This document shows, one piece after another, positions 1 through 40,933 of a DNA stretch of 40,933 bases. Location: UHGV virus genome UHGV-0179541. The stretch is one strand, 5' to 3'. The notes beneath the pieces were generated by a model. It saw nothing but the letters and a program-made list of their open reading frames with translations, was not told the origin of the DNA and searched no databases. The DNA comes from a virus. Each line of letters opens with the position of its first letter. Position 1 is the first letter of the stretch. The translations under genes were made by a program, and so were the position numbers.

Positions 1-762
1 TTACTACGCCATTGATAATACGCTTTTATATATTGAAGATGTAGAAAATAATAAACCATTAATCTAGCTAAAGTTGGATGCTTAAGAAATGCTTCATAAT
101 TCAGTAAGGCATTAGCATAATGGGAATAAAAGTACAGAGACTATCCCTATGGATGATAAATACTGTCCTTTTATTGCTACCCATAAATAATCACCATGCC
201 AATACTATCAAATTGATATTTGAAATGTGATCACTTGACTTTCTATACGTTATTTTATAACGGTTAATATATTTATAAAAACAACGGGTGTGCCATACGC
301 CCGTTTCAATACTTAACGCACATGTGTTTTGGTTTAGTCATCATCCAGTTATATGTATTTTAGCCAGGAACAGGTTAAACCTTTCCTATATAACTCAAAA
401 ATTGAAACCTTATTCTCATGTCATGCTTATATTCATTATTATCGTTATATAAAAAGGCAACCATAATGTTTAGCAAATTGGCACAAAGTAGCATAAAGGC
501 TATGTTTTAATTACAGGATGTTCAGTCATTTGAATGTATAACATTATAGCTAAACAAATCTAAAACGAAGTGAATAATTTATTGTTTTCACTAAATCTCA
601 TTTTGTTTAACATCCATTGAGATTCCTTGCTTTAAATTTTGTTTTATATAAGCAATCGTTTTAATTAATTTATTTTTTGAAGGGGTAATATACTCATATG
701 CAAAATAAAGAAATGAACATCCAAATGAACTATATTAAATACCGTGGGATAAGACATAACAA

Positions 763-1086
763 ATGAAGTGGATAGTAATTGACACGATAATTCAACCTTC
801 ATGCGGCATATCTTTTTCAGCCATATGGGGTAATATGAAAATGATCATCTGGTATCAATCTACTATATTTCTCCCTCCTGGCAGTATATTTACACCGGTT
901 AAATCTGGAATTATCCTTAAAGATAAAGAATATCCTATTACTATTTATAACATCGCACCATTCAACAAGGATTTATGGAGTCTACTCAAAAGCAGTCAAG
1001 AGTGTCCTCCAGGAGAAAGAAAAATAATAAATAAATGTTTGCATAATAGTTGCATTATAAAAATATGCCCATATGGGCTCAAGTAA
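763..1086 (+). CDS. iraM: IraM-like anti-adaptor protein, chromosomal flank outside the prophage
   Basis: 107-aa ORF in AT-rich flank next to the displaced icd fragment; N-terminus [12 protein letters not shown] recalled as IraM/YcgW, which neighbours e14 in E. coli K-12. Recall only, not searched. Confidence 0.5.
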
Positions 1087-1142
1087 AGGGTTTTATATAA
1101 ATATGCTCGATATGCTATTAATAATACCTACATAAATAAAAC

Positions 1143-1165
1143 AACGGGCGTGTTATACGCCCGTT
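1143..1165. terminator. Hairpin AACGGGCG-N7-CGCCCGTT, terminator-like, shared by iraM and the ancestral icd 3' end
   Basis: Perfect 8-bp stem read directly; T-rich tract follows on the minus strand; near-copy of the hairpin after the functional icd stop. Confidence 0.5.
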
Positions 1166-1188
1166 GCAATATTAAACACATGTAGTGA

Positions 1189-1353
1189 TTACATGTTCTT
1201 GATGATCGCATCACCAAATTCTGAACATTTCAGCAGTTTAGCGCCTTCCATCAGACGCTCGAAGTCATAGGTTACGGTCTTCGCATTGATTGCGCCTTCC
1301 ATACCTTTAACAATCAGGTCTGCGGCTTCAGTCCAGCCCATATGGCGTAACAT
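1189..1353 (-). pseudogene. icdC: icdC: displaced 3' fragment of icd (last 54 codons plus stop) at the prophage/chromosome junction
   Basis: About 165 bp homologous to 40541..40705; translates to [54 protein letters not shown], identical to the C-terminus of the icd ORF at the window end; homology stops at 1353. Confidence 0.85.
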
Positions 1354-1494
1354 TAGATTTAGAAAATTATTATATCCAATTGAATTAAAACAATTTTATA
1401 CTTAACGAACATCTAAACTTGTTTTTTTACCTTCACCATAACTCGCTGATTTTGTATAGTTTACGTAGCGTTTTGATAACCACTTTATGGCAAA

Positions 1495-2187: not shown

Positions 2188-4077
2188 ATGAAATCCGAAA
2201 CGCTAACCATCCAGCAAATTTTCCAAAATCAACGACAATATCGTGTTCCATTCTATCAACGTGCCTACGTATGGACGCAACGAAACCAATGGTCAGCTTT
2301 GTTGGAGGATATCTTCGAAAAAGCACAGAGCCGACTTTCGGGAACAAAACCAACCCCTCATTTCCTCGGCGCGGTGGTGCTGGAACCTCAACTCAAAAAC
2401 AGCTTGTTAGGTGTAGATACCATACATATTATTGACGGCCAGCAACGTTTAACCACTCTTCAATATATTCTGGCATCCATTCGATTATCATTGCGTGCTA
2501 CAGGCCTTTCTGAACTGGAAGGGTTAGTATTGACTTGCTTGAAAAATACAAACGAAGCAACGATGAGAAATAAAAAGGTAGAATGCTTCAAACTGTGGCC
2601 AACTTTTCGAGATCAAACTCATTTTATTCAAAGTCTTAATGTTGATAATATTGACGATCTCCGTAATGTATTTTCTGATAGCTTCACGCAACATGGTACG
2701 TTACGTAAACATTTCAACCACCCGCCGTCACTAGAGGCATTATGGTTTTTTACTGAAGCCTTTATAAAATGGATTAAAATAGAAAAACACTCACCACAAG
2801 AAAATGCTGTAGCACTAATTGAGGCTGTCTTGACGGATCTGAAACTGGTAAGCATATTTCTCGAAGCTGAAGATGATGCCCAAATAATTTTTGAAACATT
2901 AAATGGGCGAGGAGCGGAACTTCATGCAACGGATCTTATTCGCAACTATATCTTTATGTGCGCTGAGCATGAAAATATTAATGCTATTGAATTATATGAA
3001 AATGAGTGGAAGATCTTTGAAGATAAATACTGGTCGGAAAAGCAACGCCGTGGACGTATTAATAAACCACGCATGGAGTGGCTTGTACATGCGACATTGC
3101 AATCAGAAAGGCAGCGTGAAATTGATCTGTCTCGCCTTTACAATGAGTATCGTGATTATGTAAGTAAGGACTTGCCTTCACAACGAGCAGATCTGCAAGT
3201 AAAGCGCCTCAAACAATATGCATCACAATATAAAGAATTGGTTGGTGGTTTTGGCACAACCCCCATCTCACACTTTAGACATCGCATCGCAGCCTATGAT
3301 GTGACGACACTCTATCCGCTTGCTTTGTTCATTTCGATAGCTAACATCGCCGATGATGAGAAAGCAGCCATGTATAATGATCTTGTCTCCTACGTAGTAC
3401 GAAGATCCGTATGTGGCCTGACGCCAAAGAATTACAACAATGTATTTATGAATGTATTGCGACACTTGTCTAAAACGGAAATTTCCAGTGTTGAGTTACG
3501 TAATATCCTCAATAGCTTAAATGGCGAAGCCTCACGTTGGCCTGGGGACTCAGAATTTCTCAACGCTTGCATCAATGCTCCACTTTATCCTGGCAGGCTC
3601 GACGCACCGAAAATGCGCTCAATGTTAACGGAACTTGAAAGAGAACTTTGTCGCCAAGTGAAGACAGAAAAGCCTGATGTTCCAAATCTTTCTAATCTCG
3701 ATATCGATCATCTTATGCCTCAAAGTTGGTATTCCTGTTGGCCTCTCGAAAATGGTCATATGGTGACAAATTCAGATGCTACGGTAATGAACCAAATTGT
3801 TCTGTCTGGAACCGATCTTACCCCTGAACAGCTACTGGTAAGGAAACGGCAACAAGCGATAGCTACGTTGGGAAATCTAACTTTGCTTAACCTTAGCGTA
3901 AACCGTTCCGTTCAGAATGCTGTATTTCTGAAAAAACGTGATGCTCTCATCGTCCATACCAATCTACGACTGAACATACCACTTATACTTAAGGATAAAT
4001 GGGATGAGAGTGAAATACTGGAGCGAGGTAAAAAGTTGGGGGAAATTGCATTGAAAGTATGGCCAAAATACGATTAA
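2188..4077 (+). CDS. DUF262/DUF1524 two-domain protein, GmrSD-family type IV (modification-dependent) restriction endonuclease-like
   Basis: N-terminal motifs VPFYQRAYVW and IIDGQQRLTTL (DUF262 / ParB-like signature DGQQR); C-terminal DIDHLMPQS region consistent with the DUF1524 His-Me finger; AT-richer than phage core. Confidence 0.75.
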   Translation: MKSETLTIQQIFQNQRQYRVPFYQRAYVWTQRNQWSALLEDIFEKAQSRLSGTKPTPHFLGAVVLEPQLKNSLLGVDTIHIIDGQQRLTTLQYILASIRLSLRATGLSELEGLVLTCLKNTNEATMRNKKVECFKLWPTFRDQTHFIQSLNVDNIDDLRNVFSDSFTQHGTLRKHFNHPPSLEALWFFTEAFIKWIKIEKHSPQENAVALIEAVLTDLKLVSIFLEAEDDAQIIFETLNGRGAELHATDLIRNYIFMCAEHENINAIELYENEWKIFEDKYWSEKQRRGRINKPRMEWLVHATLQSERQREIDLSRLYNEYRDYVSKDLPSQRADLQVKRLKQYASQYKELVGGFGTTPISHFRHRIAAYDVTTLYPLALFISIANIADDEKAAMYNDLVSYVVRRSVCGLTPKNYNNVFMNVLRHLSKTEISSVELRNILNSLNGEASRWPGDSEFLNACINAPLYPGRLDAPKMRSMLTELERELCRQVKTEKPDVPNLSNLDIDHLMPQSWYSCWPLENGHMVTNSDATVMNQIVLSGTDLTPEQLLVRKRQQAIATLGNLTLLNLSVNRSVQNAVFLKKRDALIVHTNLRLNIPLILKDKWDESEILERGKKLGEIALKVWPKYD

Positions 4078-4099
4078 TGCAATTAATAAAATGATTATA

Positions 4100-4123
4100 G
4101 CGGCCTTACATTAGTAAGGCCGC
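4100..4123. terminator. Hairpin GCGGCCTTA-CATTAG-TAAGGCCGC between convergent genes
   Basis: Perfect 9-bp stem immediately after the DUF262 gene stop; the truncated invertase frame terminates inside the loop. Confidence 0.6.
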
Positions 4124-4338
4124 AACTCACTATTAAATCCTTTAATTTGCATCAAGAACAGCACTGTCAGCCCTAGGCTCTCGGACTTTGTACCGCTTAT
4201 CTTGTCTTCAAAAATCAGCTCGCATCCTGCACAGTTAAACGCATTACGTTGTAGATCGATTTTCTGGTCATTTGTTGATACGCAAACATAGCCAATAAGC
4301 ATGGTAGCTCCCTCTGACAAAAGCAGGAATGATGCCAT
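4111..4338 (-). pseudogene. Truncated serine DNA invertase (Pin/Gin/Hin family), N-terminal 75 codons only
   Basis: MLIGYVCVSTNDQKIDLQRNAFNCAGCELIFEDKISGT matches the invertase N-terminus including the catalytic-serine region; frame ends after about 75 aa where a full invertase is about 190 aa. Confidence 0.75.
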
Positions 4339-35680: not shown

Positions 35681-35926
35681 ATGCTTCAAATGTTAACTCT
35701 TGAAGAATGGGCTACTGAAAAATACAGAAGCAATCCTCCAAGCGTGTCCACATTGCGTCGTTATGCTAAGCAGAATTTATTTTGCCCACCGGCCATGAAA
35801 CAAGGTCGGTTATGGCGAGTGCGTGAGGACGCCGAATTAGTTGGGGAGTTGGTAACGCCAATAATTAAGAAAAATGACTCATTACTTTTGCAACGGATTT
35901 TGAGTGATGGCAGCCAGACCGCGTAA
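35681..35926 (+). CDS. xis: Excisionase-like protein
   Basis: 81 aa overlapping the integrase start, the usual xis position. Confidence 0.55.
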   Translation: MLQMLTLEEWATEKYRSNPPSVSTLRRYAKQNLFCPPAMKQGRLWRVREDAELVGELVTPIIKKNDSLLLQRILSDGSQTA

Positions 35927-37034
35927 GAATAATGTTTCAGTCCCTAACTTATATCCGCTTTATAGTAGGAAGGTAAATAAAGTCTATTGGCGGTATAAGC
36001 ATCCAGTAACAGGAAAATTCCATGCTTTGGGAACAAACGAAGCTGAAGCTATCGCTATTGCCACTGAGGCCAACACTCGCCTGGCTGAACAAAGAACCCG
36101 GCAGATTCTGGCTATCAGTGACAGGATCGCAACCAGCAAAGGAAAGGCTATCACAACGTCAACCTGGTTAGATCGCTATCAAGCGATCCAGGATGACAGG
36201 CTTAAAAGTGGTGATATAAGACTCAACACCTATAAGCAAAAAGCTAAACCAGTATCCTTGCTCAGAGAACGAGCAGGAATGAAGTTGATCTCAGCCGTTG
36301 ATGTAAGAGATATAGCACAATTGCTTGACGAGTATATCGCTGCCGGGCAGCCGAGAATGGCGCAAGTCGTAAGGTCTGTATTGATCGATGTATTTAAGGA
36401 AGCACAGCATTATGGCGAAGTTCCGCCAGGGTATAACCCTGCTCTTGCGACGAAGCAACCCAGACGGAAAATTACCCGTCAACGCCTCAGCCTGGAAGAA
36501 TGGCAAAAAATATTCGATATCGCAGACGCCACTCATCGTTATATGGGAAATGCCATGCTCCTAGCTTTGGTCACTGGGCAGCGTTTGGGAGATATATCCA
36601 AAATGAAATTTAGTGATATTTGGGAGGATCATCTTCACGTCATTCAGGAAAAGACTGGAAGCAAAATCGCTATCCCTCTTTCTCTACGTTTGAATGCTAT
36701 CAATTGGAGCCTACGAGATGTAGTAGCTCGCTGCCGTGACTACGCAGTGAGCCCATACTTGGTGCATTTTTTCCGTTCAACCTCACAAGCAGAACGTGGT
36801 GCACAGGTTAAATCCAATACATTGACGATGAATTTTAGTAAAGCAAGGGATTTAGCAGGGATTGACTGGGGGGATGGCTCACCTGCCACATTCCATGAAC
36901 AAAGGTCTTTATCTGAACGCCTGTACAAAGAACAGGGGTTAGATACGCAAAAATTACTTGGTCATAAAACACAACAGCAGACCGATCGTTACCATGATGA
37001 TCGAGGCAAAGGATGGAGCAAAGTAGCATTGTGA
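35904..37034 (+). CDS. int: Tyrosine integrase (phage integrase family, icd-specific e14 / phage-21 type)
   Basis: 376 aa; C-terminal catalytic region ending HKTQQQTDRYHDDRG; prophage sits in icd. Confidence 0.85.
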   Translation: MMAARPRKNNVSVPNLYPLYSRKVNKVYWRYKHPVTGKFHALGTNEAEAIAIATEANTRLAEQRTRQILAISDRIATSKGKAITTSTWLDRYQAIQDDRLKSGDIRLNTYKQKAKPVSLLRERAGMKLISAVDVRDIAQLLDEYIAAGQPRMAQVVRSVLIDVFKEAQHYGEVPPGYNPALATKQPRRKITRQRLSLEEWQKIFDIADATHRYMGNAMLLALVTGQRLGDISKMKFSDIWEDHLHVIQEKTGSKIAIPLSLRLNAINWSLRDVVARCRDYAVSPYLVHFFRSTSQAERGAQVKSNTLTMNFSKARDLAGIDWGDGSPATFHEQRSLSERLYKEQGLDTQKLLGHKTQQQTDRYHDDRGKGWSKVAL

Positions 37035-37390: not shown

Positions 37391-38350
37391 ATGGAAAGCT
37401 ATACTTTTGAATTGAAAGGAAATGTATTTGGCTTTTTTCAACGCAATGGTGAGGATTGTTTTTTATACATTAACACTGGTTTATTCCCTAAAGTAACCTA
37501 CTACCAATGGAGTCATTGGCAACGAGGAAAGGATAACTATAATGAAACATATCCTGATGCAATAAAAACAGATGAAATAGCAAAGGCGATTGGTTATTTT
37601 TCTTGGAATCAATGCTTTGATCGTTGTCCATACCAACCTATAGTTATCAGTTTATCTAAAAAAACAGAAGCAGGAATATTCTACCCTAGAATGAATAGAG
37701 GAGAACCAAAACTATATAACCAACAAATAGCGGAGGCACGAATCCTTGATGAAGTAAGGTCTTTTAATAATATATGTGATTCATTAAATGAATTATTTAA
37801 CTATATAGATCCTGATACTGGTAATTTGAGTTGTTTTGGTAATAAAATCAGAGAAATATTAATTATTGCATGTACTGAGGTTGAATACTTACTTCACAAT
37901 TTTCTTACAGATAATGGTTACACTGTTAACAACAATAGATTTAGTACTAACGATTATGTTAAATCTCTTGGTTTGCTGAAATTAGATGGGTATTCTACGA
38001 GGCTCGTTTACTATCCATATTTGCAAGAGTGGTGCCCATTTAGTGGTTGGGATGAATCTAAACCAACTACTAGTTTGACTTGGTATGACGCATATAATGC
38101 AGTTAAGCATAATCGCGGAACAAACAAGCAAAAGGCATCTCTTAACGCTGTAATAAATGCAGTAGCTGCCATTCATATTTTACTCGTAGCTCAATATGGG
38201 AGTGAGATATTTAATAGCCCGATGCACTCTAATTTCTCAAGCATTTTTAATACAACGAAATATCCTTCTTTCTTAGCAAATGATCTTCAGTGCCCAACAA
38301 TGAATCATGATCAAATCCTATGGGATAAAAAGTCATATTTATTTTCATAA
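37391..38350 (+). CDS. Hypothetical cargo protein, 319 aa, Trp/Tyr/Cys-rich, AT-rich (candidate single-gene defence or Abi protein)
   Basis: Strong ribosome-binding site (AAAGGAAACAAT ATG); AT-rich by eye; between int and the att site; no family recognised. Confidence 0.55.
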   Translation: MESYTFELKGNVFGFFQRNGEDCFLYINTGLFPKVTYYQWSHWQRGKDNYNETYPDAIKTDEIAKAIGYFSWNQCFDRCPYQPIVISLSKKTEAGIFYPRMNRGEPKLYNQQIAEARILDEVRSFNNICDSLNELFNYIDPDTGNLSCFGNKIREILIIACTEVEYLLHNFLTDNGYTVNNNRFSTNDYVKSLGLLKLDGYSTRLVYYPYLQEWCPFSGWDESKPTTSLTWYDAYNAVKHNRGTNKQKASLNAVINAVAAIHILLVAQYGSEIFNSPMHSNFSSIFNTTKYPSFLANDLQCPTMNHDQILWDKKSYLFS

Positions 38351-38472
38351 AAAATTGAAAACACCTTAGCCCGCTTCTGGCACGGAGTGGATAGAAAGCA
38401 AGGCATAAGTAAGTTATTAATTTAAGTTCTTCAAGAAAGTGCCCACTCTATATATTTGATGTCTTAACAGAT

Positions 38473-38510
38473 TAATATGTAGGTGTCTTTATAGCGACAC
38501 CTACATATTA
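38473..38510. terminator. Long perfect hairpin (15-bp stem TAATATGTAGGTGTC, 8-nt loop) between convergent cargo genes
   Basis: Read directly; T run follows on the plus strand. Confidence 0.6.
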
Positions 38511-38513
38511 ATT

Positions 38514-39533
38514 TCAATTATTTTTTTTATCAATTATATGACCACTGTTAGTGCCATAATACTTACCAGAAGCAACACCTTGCTTATAAAAATCATTCAA
38601 TACTTTTATTAGCAATCGTGCATCTGATGCATCTTTTATTACTAGCCTACCATTTTTTTCCTCTAACTTAGCACCTTCGAATATATTTAACGTTTCTTGA
38701 TATTTTATTATTATGTCAGGACTTAAATTTTCGTGGTTCTTTTTTTGAGCTATGCTCGCAATAGTTCGCTGAAGTGTTTTATTAGTTAAAATAACCTCTT
38801 CCAGAATTTTTATATTATCTATAATAGAAGCATCAGAAATAACCTTTAACACACTTCTTGCATTTTCCACAAATTCTTTTTCGATCCCGATAATTTGTTC
38901 AAACCCCAATTTCGATACAATATAAATCTTGTTATTTTTAAAGATAAAATCTATTTTTTTGTCAAAACTCACTGTCTGCATCGGAACGACTTTCATTGTA
39001 GCACTATTAACATCAAAGATAGCCTGCATTTTTTGAAAGGTATTCAATGGAGTATCTGTTGCCACCTTAGATTTTGTTAGCTTCCTATAAATGGTAAAAC
39101 CATCATCTTGTGTAGATATTTTTAAACAAAAAGCCAATATATCAGACTTAACTTCCTCTAGACTCTTTAATATATTTATTCCTGAGCCTTTATTTATTTT
39201 TTCTAATACTTTCCTGAATTCAAGGTCTTCAATATTTGCATAACCATAAATAGCGTCAGTCCCATCATCAGAAATCACTGAGTAGTCATGATACTCTAAT
39301 TCGTTGTTGCCTACCATTTTGTTTAATGTATCCAATGACCCAGTTTTAAAAAAATCCACCATTTTTTTGTCAAGACTCACCTTATAGATATCAAATATAA
39401 ATCTGTTTTCTGATGAGACTGAAGAATCTTTATTAATTTTCTTTGTTATCAAATAACATTTCATCGAAAATGTATTCGAGTGATAAAGATTCATTAGTGA
39501 ATTTAAAATACCTTTAATGTCTATTTCCGTCAT
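38514..39533 (-). CDS. Soluble 339-aa cargo protein, second gene of the two-gene operon (Kiwa KwaB-like by layout only)
   Basis: Start ATG overlaps the upstream stop (TAATG); Lys/Asn/Ile-rich, no TM segment; very AT-rich. Confidence 0.55.
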   Translation of the reverse strand: MTEIDIKGILNSLMNLYHSNTFSMKCYLITKKINKDSSVSSENRFIFDIYKVSLDKKMVDFFKTGSLDTLNKMVGNNELEYHDYSVISDDGTDAIYGYANIEDLEFRKVLEKINKGSGINILKSLEEVKSDILAFCLKISTQDDGFTIYRKLTKSKVATDTPLNTFQKMQAIFDVNSATMKVVPMQTVSFDKKIDFIFKNNKIYIVSKLGFEQIIGIEKEFVENARSVLKVISDASIIDNIKILEEVILTNKTLQRTIASIAQKKNHENLSPDIIIKYQETLNIFEGAKLEEKNGRLVIKDASDARLLIKVLNDFYKQGVASGKYYGTNSGHIIDKKNN

Positions 39534-40153
39534 TATTCTAATTCCTGATATTTAGCATAGAAGAGTTTGTAACCAATCTTTTGAATTTTGATACTGTCAT
39601 CTTCGTCCAAATATTTATTCGAACAAATTATCATTCCTTTCTTTTTTTGGCCGCCACTATTTATATACTCAATGCTGTAAAGTGAGTACTTTATAGCTAA
39701 AGTTGGATTTATAAGAATCATTGATGAGTTAGAATAAATAAGAAATGTAACCAGTAGCAGAATAGCTAAAGAAAATACACTCATGGGGTCAGAAAGATCT
39801 TGAAAAAGAAATGGCAGAAGATATGTAAAAAGATAACTTATAGATTCACTGTTTTTATTTTCTATGTCGACTATTTTTACAAAATCCCCATCATTATCAA
39901 TGCGTCTTTCCATATTTGATAATAAGAATATTAAACCAACAATACCAAAAACGACAAGAAGAAATATAATCGTAACCGCACCAAAATTTTCAATGTATAA
40001 TATTAATGCCTTCTTGTTCACCCCCCCCCAGTTGAGGTAATCTTTTTTCTTGTATAGTTGATTTACGGTCATAATTAAAAACAAAGGCATGTAAGACACC
40101 AAAAATAGTGTCAACCTTGCTCCTATTTTTAACTCTTCTTTTCGTGATGACAT
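39533..40153 (-). CDS. Four-helix membrane protein, first gene of the two-gene operon (Kiwa KwaA-like by layout only)
   Basis: Hydrophobic helices at roughly aa 20-37, 63-86, 111-125 and 131-148 of the track ORF; probable ATG start at 40153 after GAGG; contains the G9 tract. Confidence 0.55.
   Translation of the reverse strand: MSSRKEELKIGARLTLFLVSYMPLFLIMTVNQLYKKKDYLNWGGVNKKALILYIENFGAVTIIFLLVVFGIVGLIFLLSNMERRIDNDGDFVKIVDIENKNSESISYLFTYLLPFLFQDLSDPMSVFSLAILLLVTFLIYSNSSMILINPTLAIKYSLYSIEYINSGGQKKKGMIICSNKYLDEDDSIKIQKIGYKLFYAKYQELE
40021..40029. repeat. Homopolymer tract, 9 C on plus strand (G9 in the membrane-protein coding strand)
   Basis: Read directly; encodes WGGV. Confidence 0.9.
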
Positions 40154-40438
40154 AGTTCCAAAACCTCGAATCAACGCTTTCTTAGGTACTGATAACTGTA
40201 CCTAGTTTAACCTATAATATCTATGCAACATATTGATATATTGGTTAAAATTCCTTCTTTGATATCCCCTTACTTTCCCATTGATCAGTATGAAAAAACG
40301 TGAGCAATGTCCGTTATTGGCACTGAACGGACCTAAATATTAACGAGCATCCACCTGAAATGATCATAAAAAACTGAGGTATGCCTAATTGGAACTAGGT
40401 AATAGGGCTACCCTCTGAACATCCAAACTACTAGGGGG

Positions 40439-40471
40439 TTTTGATAACTTGTTTTGATAAAATTTTGATAA
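40439..40471. repeat. Three direct repeats of TTTTGATAA near the att site; candidate integrase arm-type sites
   Basis: Copies at 40439, 40452 and 40463; the same TTTTGATAACC motif recurs at 1471..1481 near the other end. Confidence 0.4.
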
Positions 40472-40494
40472 CCGTTAGCAGCCTAACAAAAAAC

Positions 40495-40517
40495 AACGGG
40501 AGCGTTACGCTCCCGTT
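40495..40517 (-). terminator. Rho-independent terminator of icd (AACGGGAGCG-TTAC-GCTCCCGTT)
   Basis: Hairpin immediately after the icd stop, followed by a T run on the minus strand. Confidence 0.75.
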
Positions 40518-40540
40518 AATAAATTTAACAAACAACGGCA

Positions 40541-40933
40541 TTACATGTTTTTGATGATTGCGTCGCCAAACTCGCTACATTTCAGCAGTTTAGCACCTTC
40601 CATCAGACGTTCAAAATCGTAAGTTACGGTCTTGGCGTTGATCGCGCCTTCCATACCTTTAACAATTAAATCAGCCGCTTCGGTCCAACCCATGTGGCGT
40701 AACATCATCTCAGCGGAGAGAATAATAGAGCCAGGGTTTACTTTGTCCTGACCGGCGTATTTCGGCGCAGTACCGTGGGTGGCTTCAAACAGGGCGCATT
40801 CGTCACCGATGTTTGCTCCAGGGGCGATACCGATACCGCCAACCTGCGCTGCCAGAGCGTCAGAAATGTAGTCACCGTTCAGGTTCATACAGGCGATAAC
40901 ATCATATTCAGCCGGACGCAGCAGGATCTGTTG
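40541..40933 (-). CDS. icd: Isocitrate dehydrogenase, 3' portion (gene continues beyond the window)
   Basis: C-terminal sequence [38 protein letters not shown]; ORF open to the window edge. Confidence 0.9.

Follow-up and report, generated by a model that had tools for sequence, protein, structure and literature searches.

Candidate integrase arm-type repeats and the strand-exchange block of an e14-type prophage in the Escherichia coli icd gene

The stretch of DNA analysed here (40,933 nt, referred to below as the window) very probably carries, from position 1354 to position 40694, a prophage of about 39.35 kb in the 3' end of the Escherichia coli icd gene, which combines an SfV/SfII-like myovirus structural module with the int-xis-attP module of e14 and integrates by means of a lambda-type integrase and its arm words. 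The word TTTTGATAA, repeated beside both prophage ends, is supported as the arm-type site of this integrase by its conservation in e14, its positions in phage 21, its occurrence in about 75 related loci and its co-variation with the integrase arm-binding domain, in agreement with what the earlier note had proposed for these repeats. Judged from sequence comparison, strand exchange must have been confined to an 11-bp block, TGGCGTAACAT, which corresponds to the icd codons Met-Leu-Arg-His. The comparison fixes the prophage bounds to the base (attL core 40695–40705, attR core 1343–1353, unit length 39,352 bp, icd intact). The element is the e14 integration module, already known, on an apparently complete relative of the e14 remnant of K-12; with the module identified as that of e14, the finding leaves the knowledge of site-specific recombination unchanged.

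The whole window is E. coli DNA, with 100% identity to strain CFSAN061769. The structural module of the prophage is that of an SfII/SfI/SfV-like myovirus (97–98% identity), and all parts look intact. The tyrosine integrase, encoded on the plus strand at 35904..37034, has a lambda-type arm-binding N-domain (PF09003, 1.2e-37) and a tyrosine recombinase catalytic domain (PF00589, 8.4e-18) and is of the e14 IntE type. It differs from the K-12 e14 integrase in 8 of 376 residues (97.9% identity), none of them before residue 149, which bears out the suspected link to phage 21 and e14. The excisionase gene overlaps int on its upstream side (35681..35926, plus strand; PF07825, phrog_629), and its product differs from the e14 excisionase in three of 81 residues. 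The features of the icd-integrating e14/phage 21 group that were tested are all present here: Int together with Xis, insertion into the 3' end of icd, the junction and the positions of the arm words. Integration of e14, with its intE and xisE genes, into icd is credited to Hill, Gray and Brody 1989 in the account given in PMC6379469, and icd has been termed a well-known prophage site (PMC10111431).

The icd gene lies on the minus strand and runs from beyond 40933 to a stop codon at 40541. Insertion of e14 into icd with a phage-supplied gene tail is textbook knowledge. In the window, the host icd coding sequence, which runs off the end (40706..40933, minus strand), is continued by a 3' end of 54 codons and a stop (40541..40705, minus strand), and a second 3' end, icdC, is found at 1189..1353 (minus strand). 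Both 165-nt tails are translated into one and the same peptide of 54 residues; their 25 nucleotide differences, among 165 positions, affect 22 codons and are always synonymous, just as the earlier note had described identical peptides with synonymous divergence. One of the copies had also been taken to be phage-supplied, and alignment with an unoccupied allele confirms this and tells which. In BL21 the site is empty and iraM directly follows icd. Window positions 1–1353, where iraM (763–1086) lies beyond icdC, differ from the empty BL21 locus at two of 1353 nucleotides; icdC itself is identical to BL21, and many E. coli icd genes without an insertion match it at 100%. The functional icd departs from BL21 at 25 positions, all of them inside 40541–40694, and 40706–40933 is identical to the empty site. 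Therefore the tail now fused to icd came with the phage, and icdC is the displaced native tail. At both ends the homology extends past the icd stop codon into a terminator hairpin. A phage-supplied intrinsic terminator for the rebuilt icd (40494..40518, minus strand) consists of an 11-pair stem followed by a T run and is homologous to the native icd terminator, a hairpin that now stands downstream of icdC (1141..1167, minus strand).

Direct repeats of TTTTGATAA stand near both ends of the prophage, where they had been reported. Three tandem copies, the putative arm-type integrase sites of the int-proximal arm, occupy 40439..40471 (plus strand; copies at 40439, 40452 and 40463) and lie 102, 89 and 78 nt outside the icd stop codon. 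A single candidate site of the int-distal arm, at 1471..1481 (plus strand), shares 11 nt, TTTTGATAACC, with the copy at 40463. This single site begins 118 nt beyond the junction and the triple begins 266 bp from it; the whole attP span is 393 bp (40439–40705 plus 1354–1479). The 40.9-kb window contains exactly four copies of TTTTGATAA, all on the plus strand, as compared with 0.71 expected, and four or more were seen in 0 of 100 shuffles. From the triple repeat to the core, no additional degenerate arm site shows conservation.

Phage 21 (OL657228.1, M61865), a free phage whose attP is uninterrupted, has the word TTTTGGGGAA three times outside the icd terminator and once beyond the junction, and its GenBank record annotates the triple as attP subsites with the consensus YYTTCCCCAAAA. 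Alignment with its attP, to which the earlier note had pointed, gives offsets from the icd stop of -102, -89, -77 and +283, as against -102, -89, -78 and +282 here. The two elements share attB in icd, the 165-nt tail, the Met-Met junction, an IHF-like motif and a geometry that agrees within 1–2 bp, with the single arm site 118–119 bp beyond the junction and a span of about 393–395 bp. In contrast, phage 21 has TTTTGGGGAA in place of TTTTGATAA, its Int is about 60% identical and has other residues in the arm-binding domain, its attB identity ends one base earlier (...GCAGCA/G, the slash marking where it ends), and its int gene is directly beside the arm sites, with no cargo in between. In 1997 Wang, Yang and Campbell reportedly delimited the phage 21 attP to 366–418 bp, with the outermost repeated dodecamers and 209 bp of icd homology.

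The arm words were surveyed in 80 relatives of the integrase (53–98% identity), from one-genome-per-species contigs that range from Escherichia to Proteus, Xenorhabdus, Pectobacterium and Erwinia. In 72 of the 80 loci, int has an icd 3' end beside it. Words were scored in 71 of these 72, and in 69 of the 71 a tandem array of two to four words, usually three, stands at -102/-89/-78. In a set of 35 distinct e14-type loci, conservation reaches at least 90% in each column of the word, as opposed to 30–50% for flanks and spacers. The words fall into the classes TTTTGATAA, TTTTGGGGAA, TTTTGCAGAA and TTTTACTGA, which track the integrase clade and have identical offsets, and there are class-specific residues in the Int N-domain (e.g., RPRKNN...YPLYSRKVNKVYWRY versus RPR[ST]HK...YCKLDKRTGKVYWQY). 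Variant words, TTTTGCTAA/TTTTGCAAA, occur in three loci (L018, L034 and L036) of the set L006–L085, in each of which the place compared is about 125 nt beyond the icd stop. Stacks of prophages that belong to different integrase classes are found at icd in Providencia, Proteus and Morganella (L031, L037, L058, L064 and L082). The internal junctions of tandem prophages are hybrid, with the triple of one class, the icd tail and the single word of the neighbour at +283/284 (e.g., L058, 6923–7317).

A protein other than Int might read these words. Excisionase, if it has co-evolved with Int, is one candidate: it is encoded beside int and would also co-vary with the word, and lambda Xis binds tandem direct repeats. 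We consider Xis sites unlikely because the words are present on both arms, because the triple next to int resembles lambda P'1–P'3, and because the equivalent words of phage 21 are annotated attP subsites; in addition, the class-specific substitutions fall in the arm-binding domain of Int. Wang et al. are said to have found in 1997 that Xis-independent integration of phage 21 in vitro requires the outermost repeats, which likewise counts against Xis. It is very improbable that the repeats are binding sites for IHF and not for the integrase. TTGATA does fit the TTGATW half of the reverse-complemented IHF consensus, and repeats 2 and 3 together make one full consensus match (TAAAATTTTGATA at 40458), but the word, while keeping its positions, changes from one integrase clade to the next (GATAA, GGGGA, GCAGA, ACTGA), whereas IHF is a conserved host protein. 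Moreover, TTTTGGGGAA contains no IHF half-site, and a separate IHF-like motif that is invariant among the classes adjoins the single site. The co-variation of the word with the integrase therefore rules out, in our judgement, both IHF and a local-cargo role as the reader of the words. There is hardly any probability that the repeats serve to regulate the neighbouring Kiwa cargo or have arisen by chance: they are indeed upstream of kwaA, about 265 bp from its start and on the opposite side, but the same repeats are seen at the same offsets in cargo-free relatives with int ending about 20 bp away, a fourth copy is present at the other prophage end, and the shuffles never reached four copies. If the repeats are integrase arm-type sites, as we believe, Int would be expected to bind these words physically.

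The place of strand exchange can be read from the two icd tails. The crossover had been predicted to lie in one of two blocks of identity, of which the 23-bp block, GCGCCTTCCATACCTTTAACAAT, is indeed present (40644–40666, identical to 1292–1314). The other block, at the inner boundary, exists as well, but its length had been understated: it is one base longer and comprises 11 bp. Its copy at the int-proximal junction (40695..40705; attL by the lambda convention) follows the last difference between phage and host at 40694. At the int-distal junction (1343..1353; attR) identity to the host stops after 1353, and phage DNA (TAGATTT...) begins at 1354. Since the sequence is phage-type up to 40694 and host-type up to 1353, it is this boundary block, of the two in the prediction, within which the strands must have been exchanged. 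Exchange in the 23-bp block has almost no probability, even though this is the longest perfect identity between the icd copies; an identical run of at least 23 nt arises in 41% of codon-order shuffles. We exclude the 23-bp block because, in the icd-fused copy, seven phage-type differences (40667–40694) separate it from the junction and the host DNA, and because icdC is identical to BL21 over the matching stretch. The same Met-Met junction (...CAT/CAT, the slash marking the junction) in about 70 related loci from many genera also argues for the 11-bp block. The conserved form of this junction in icd, ...CGYARCAT/CAT (Leu-Met/Met), is found here, in K-12 e14 and in the phage 21 attP.

The Leu codon inside the 11-bp block is polymorphic, being TAA here (TGGCG-TAA-CAT) and CAG in K-12 e14 and phage 21 (TGGCG-CAG-CAT). 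The polymorphism did not reduce the region of exchange to less than 11 bp: in each lysogen examined, the two ends agree in their variant. In E. coli EECO1006, both ends of a 21-type prophage (L093) have TAA, although the reference attP of phage 21 has CAG. The polymorphic codon in the exchange block could act as a filter for compatibility with the host allele. The L093 prophage also has sitABCD and iss aboard.

The int-distal arm contains an IHF-like site at 1439..1451 (minus strand), recognized by its match to the consensus: TAACTCGCTGATT, the reverse complement of WATCAANNNNTTR, with one mismatch. Its distance from the single arm site is about 20 bp, in the direction of the core. The IHF-like motif YAANNNNTTGATW is found in the same place in eight int-distal arms that cannot otherwise be aligned, and the match is perfect in six of them. 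No consensus IHF site was detected in the 225 bp between the triple repeat and the core, and none with up to one mismatch inside the 209 bp of icd homology. IHF may be used at attP.

Integration can be pictured as follows. The attP brings a synonymous icd tail of 165 nt with its own terminator, and recombination at TGGCGTAACAT leaves icd intact and displaces the native tail as icdC. Int would act as a heterobivalent recombinase of the lambda type, with its N-domain on TTTTGATAA and its core-binding and catalytic domains at the 11-bp block. The triple words would have to sit beyond the icd tail and the terminator, hence 266 bp from the junction; the int-side arm of attP is unusually long because a working replacement for both has to be carried. 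On the far arm, the single word 118 bp from the junction is preceded by the IHF-like putative bend site. Bending of the DNA would bring the arm-bound Int to the core, where strands would be exchanged with the identical icd sequence. Excision by Int and Xis would restore the native icd allele, and the expected products are an attP junction in which CCAACCCATGTGGCGTAACAT is joined to TAGATTTAGAAAATT and a restored attB in which CAGCCCATATGGCGTAACAT is joined to CATCTCAGCGG. DNA bending and cleavage at particular positions within the 11 bp are inferred parts of this scheme, and the prophage may still be able to excise.

The lambda attP (P1, P2/P'1–P'3, with the IHF sites H1, H2 and H') has a similar plan, including a heterobivalent integrase whose arm-binding domain belongs to the same Pfam family, three arm sites in tandem on the int side, one or more arm sites and an IHF-type motif on the other arm, and xis upstream of int. 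Unlike lambda, the phage inserts here into a protein-coding gene and has to supply it with a new tail. Its int-side arm sites are therefore about 225–266 bp from the core (about 50–85 bp in lambda), and attP is about 390 bp long as compared with about 240 bp. Furthermore, only one arm site is detectable on the far arm, and all four words have the same orientation.

The defective prophage e14 of K-12 has the same icd target, the phage-supplied 165-nt tail and terminator, and three identical int-proximal copies of TTTTGATAA. Its int-distal flank cannot be aligned with the window, yet GTTTTGATAACCA is kept within this otherwise diverged arm, at an equal distance from the junction. Both elements have defence cargo at both ends, although the genes are not the same: lit and mcrA in e14, Kiwa and GmrSD here. 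Other differences are that e14 is a 15-kb remnant, as opposed to the full length of 39,352 bp here with an SfII/SfI/SfV-like module, that the Leu codon of the core is CAG in K-12 e14 and TAA here, and that the phage-borne icd tails differ at 19 of 165 positions. This divergence of the tails, despite integrases that are 98% identical, suggests exchange between phage and host copies of icd.

The int gene and the repeats are 3.4 kb apart owing to inserted cargo, which does not belong to the att site; most relatives have about 20 bp between the end of int and the repeats. The cargo (37391..40174) comprises an ORF on the plus strand (37391–38350) and the genes for KwaB (38514–39533) and KwaA (39533–40174) on the minus strand. 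The 319-aa product of the ORF corresponds to phrog_19461 and has no match in Pfam or PADLOC. Cargo seems to enter repeatedly at this place, between int and the arm repeats. Defence cargo is present at both prophage ends, as Kiwa with the ORF (37391–40174) and as the GmrSD region (2188–4338). In the latter, a GmrSD-type IV restriction enzyme (2188–4077) adjoins a truncated pin invertase (4111–4338), at the place where K-12 e14 has mcrA.

A free attP of the e14 type was sought in IMG/VR and among phage records, and none was recovered. No phage record spans the junction of the reconstructed e14-type attP; the best match, vB_EcoM-689R6, is a prophage record with host flank. The gapped junction pattern had seven matches in IMG/VR, five by chance and two (L086 and L088) with a full attP-like arrangement. 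These two may be junctions of tandem prophages, because the available sequence ends about 1.1 kb from them and contains no neighbouring int.

A tentative generalization, to which we give somewhat less than an even chance, is that the icd-targeting integrases of Enterobacterales comprise at least four arm-site specificities (TTTTGATAA, TTTTGGGGAA, TTTTGCAGAA and TTTTACTGA) that share one attB and a rigid attP geometry, with specificity residing in a few N-domain residues, which would let prophages stack at icd without cross-excision; the possible Leu-codon filter is a separate part of this view. To our knowledge, the pair of phage 21 and e14 specificities is the only one in the literature. A full-text literature search on the arm words returned unrelated papers only, and one on the arm-type sites of phage 21 at icd yielded just a general review. 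The family-wide view of at least four word classes at one attB is mildly new and stands outside the finding itself. With its single attB, fixed geometry and words that switch by clade, the survey may help the engineering of orthogonal integrases and the annotation of prophage ends.

A third, degenerate copy of the icd terminator region was noticed at 278–325 of the window, with 85% identity over 48 nt to the native terminator (1139–1186). It is situated about 860 bp beyond icdC, on the far side of iraM, in host flanking DNA that is present in BL21 too. A search beside it for icd coding homology, as would mark a fossil att site, revealed none, the homology being to the terminator only. This copy may be the relic of an older icd insertion that brought iraM.
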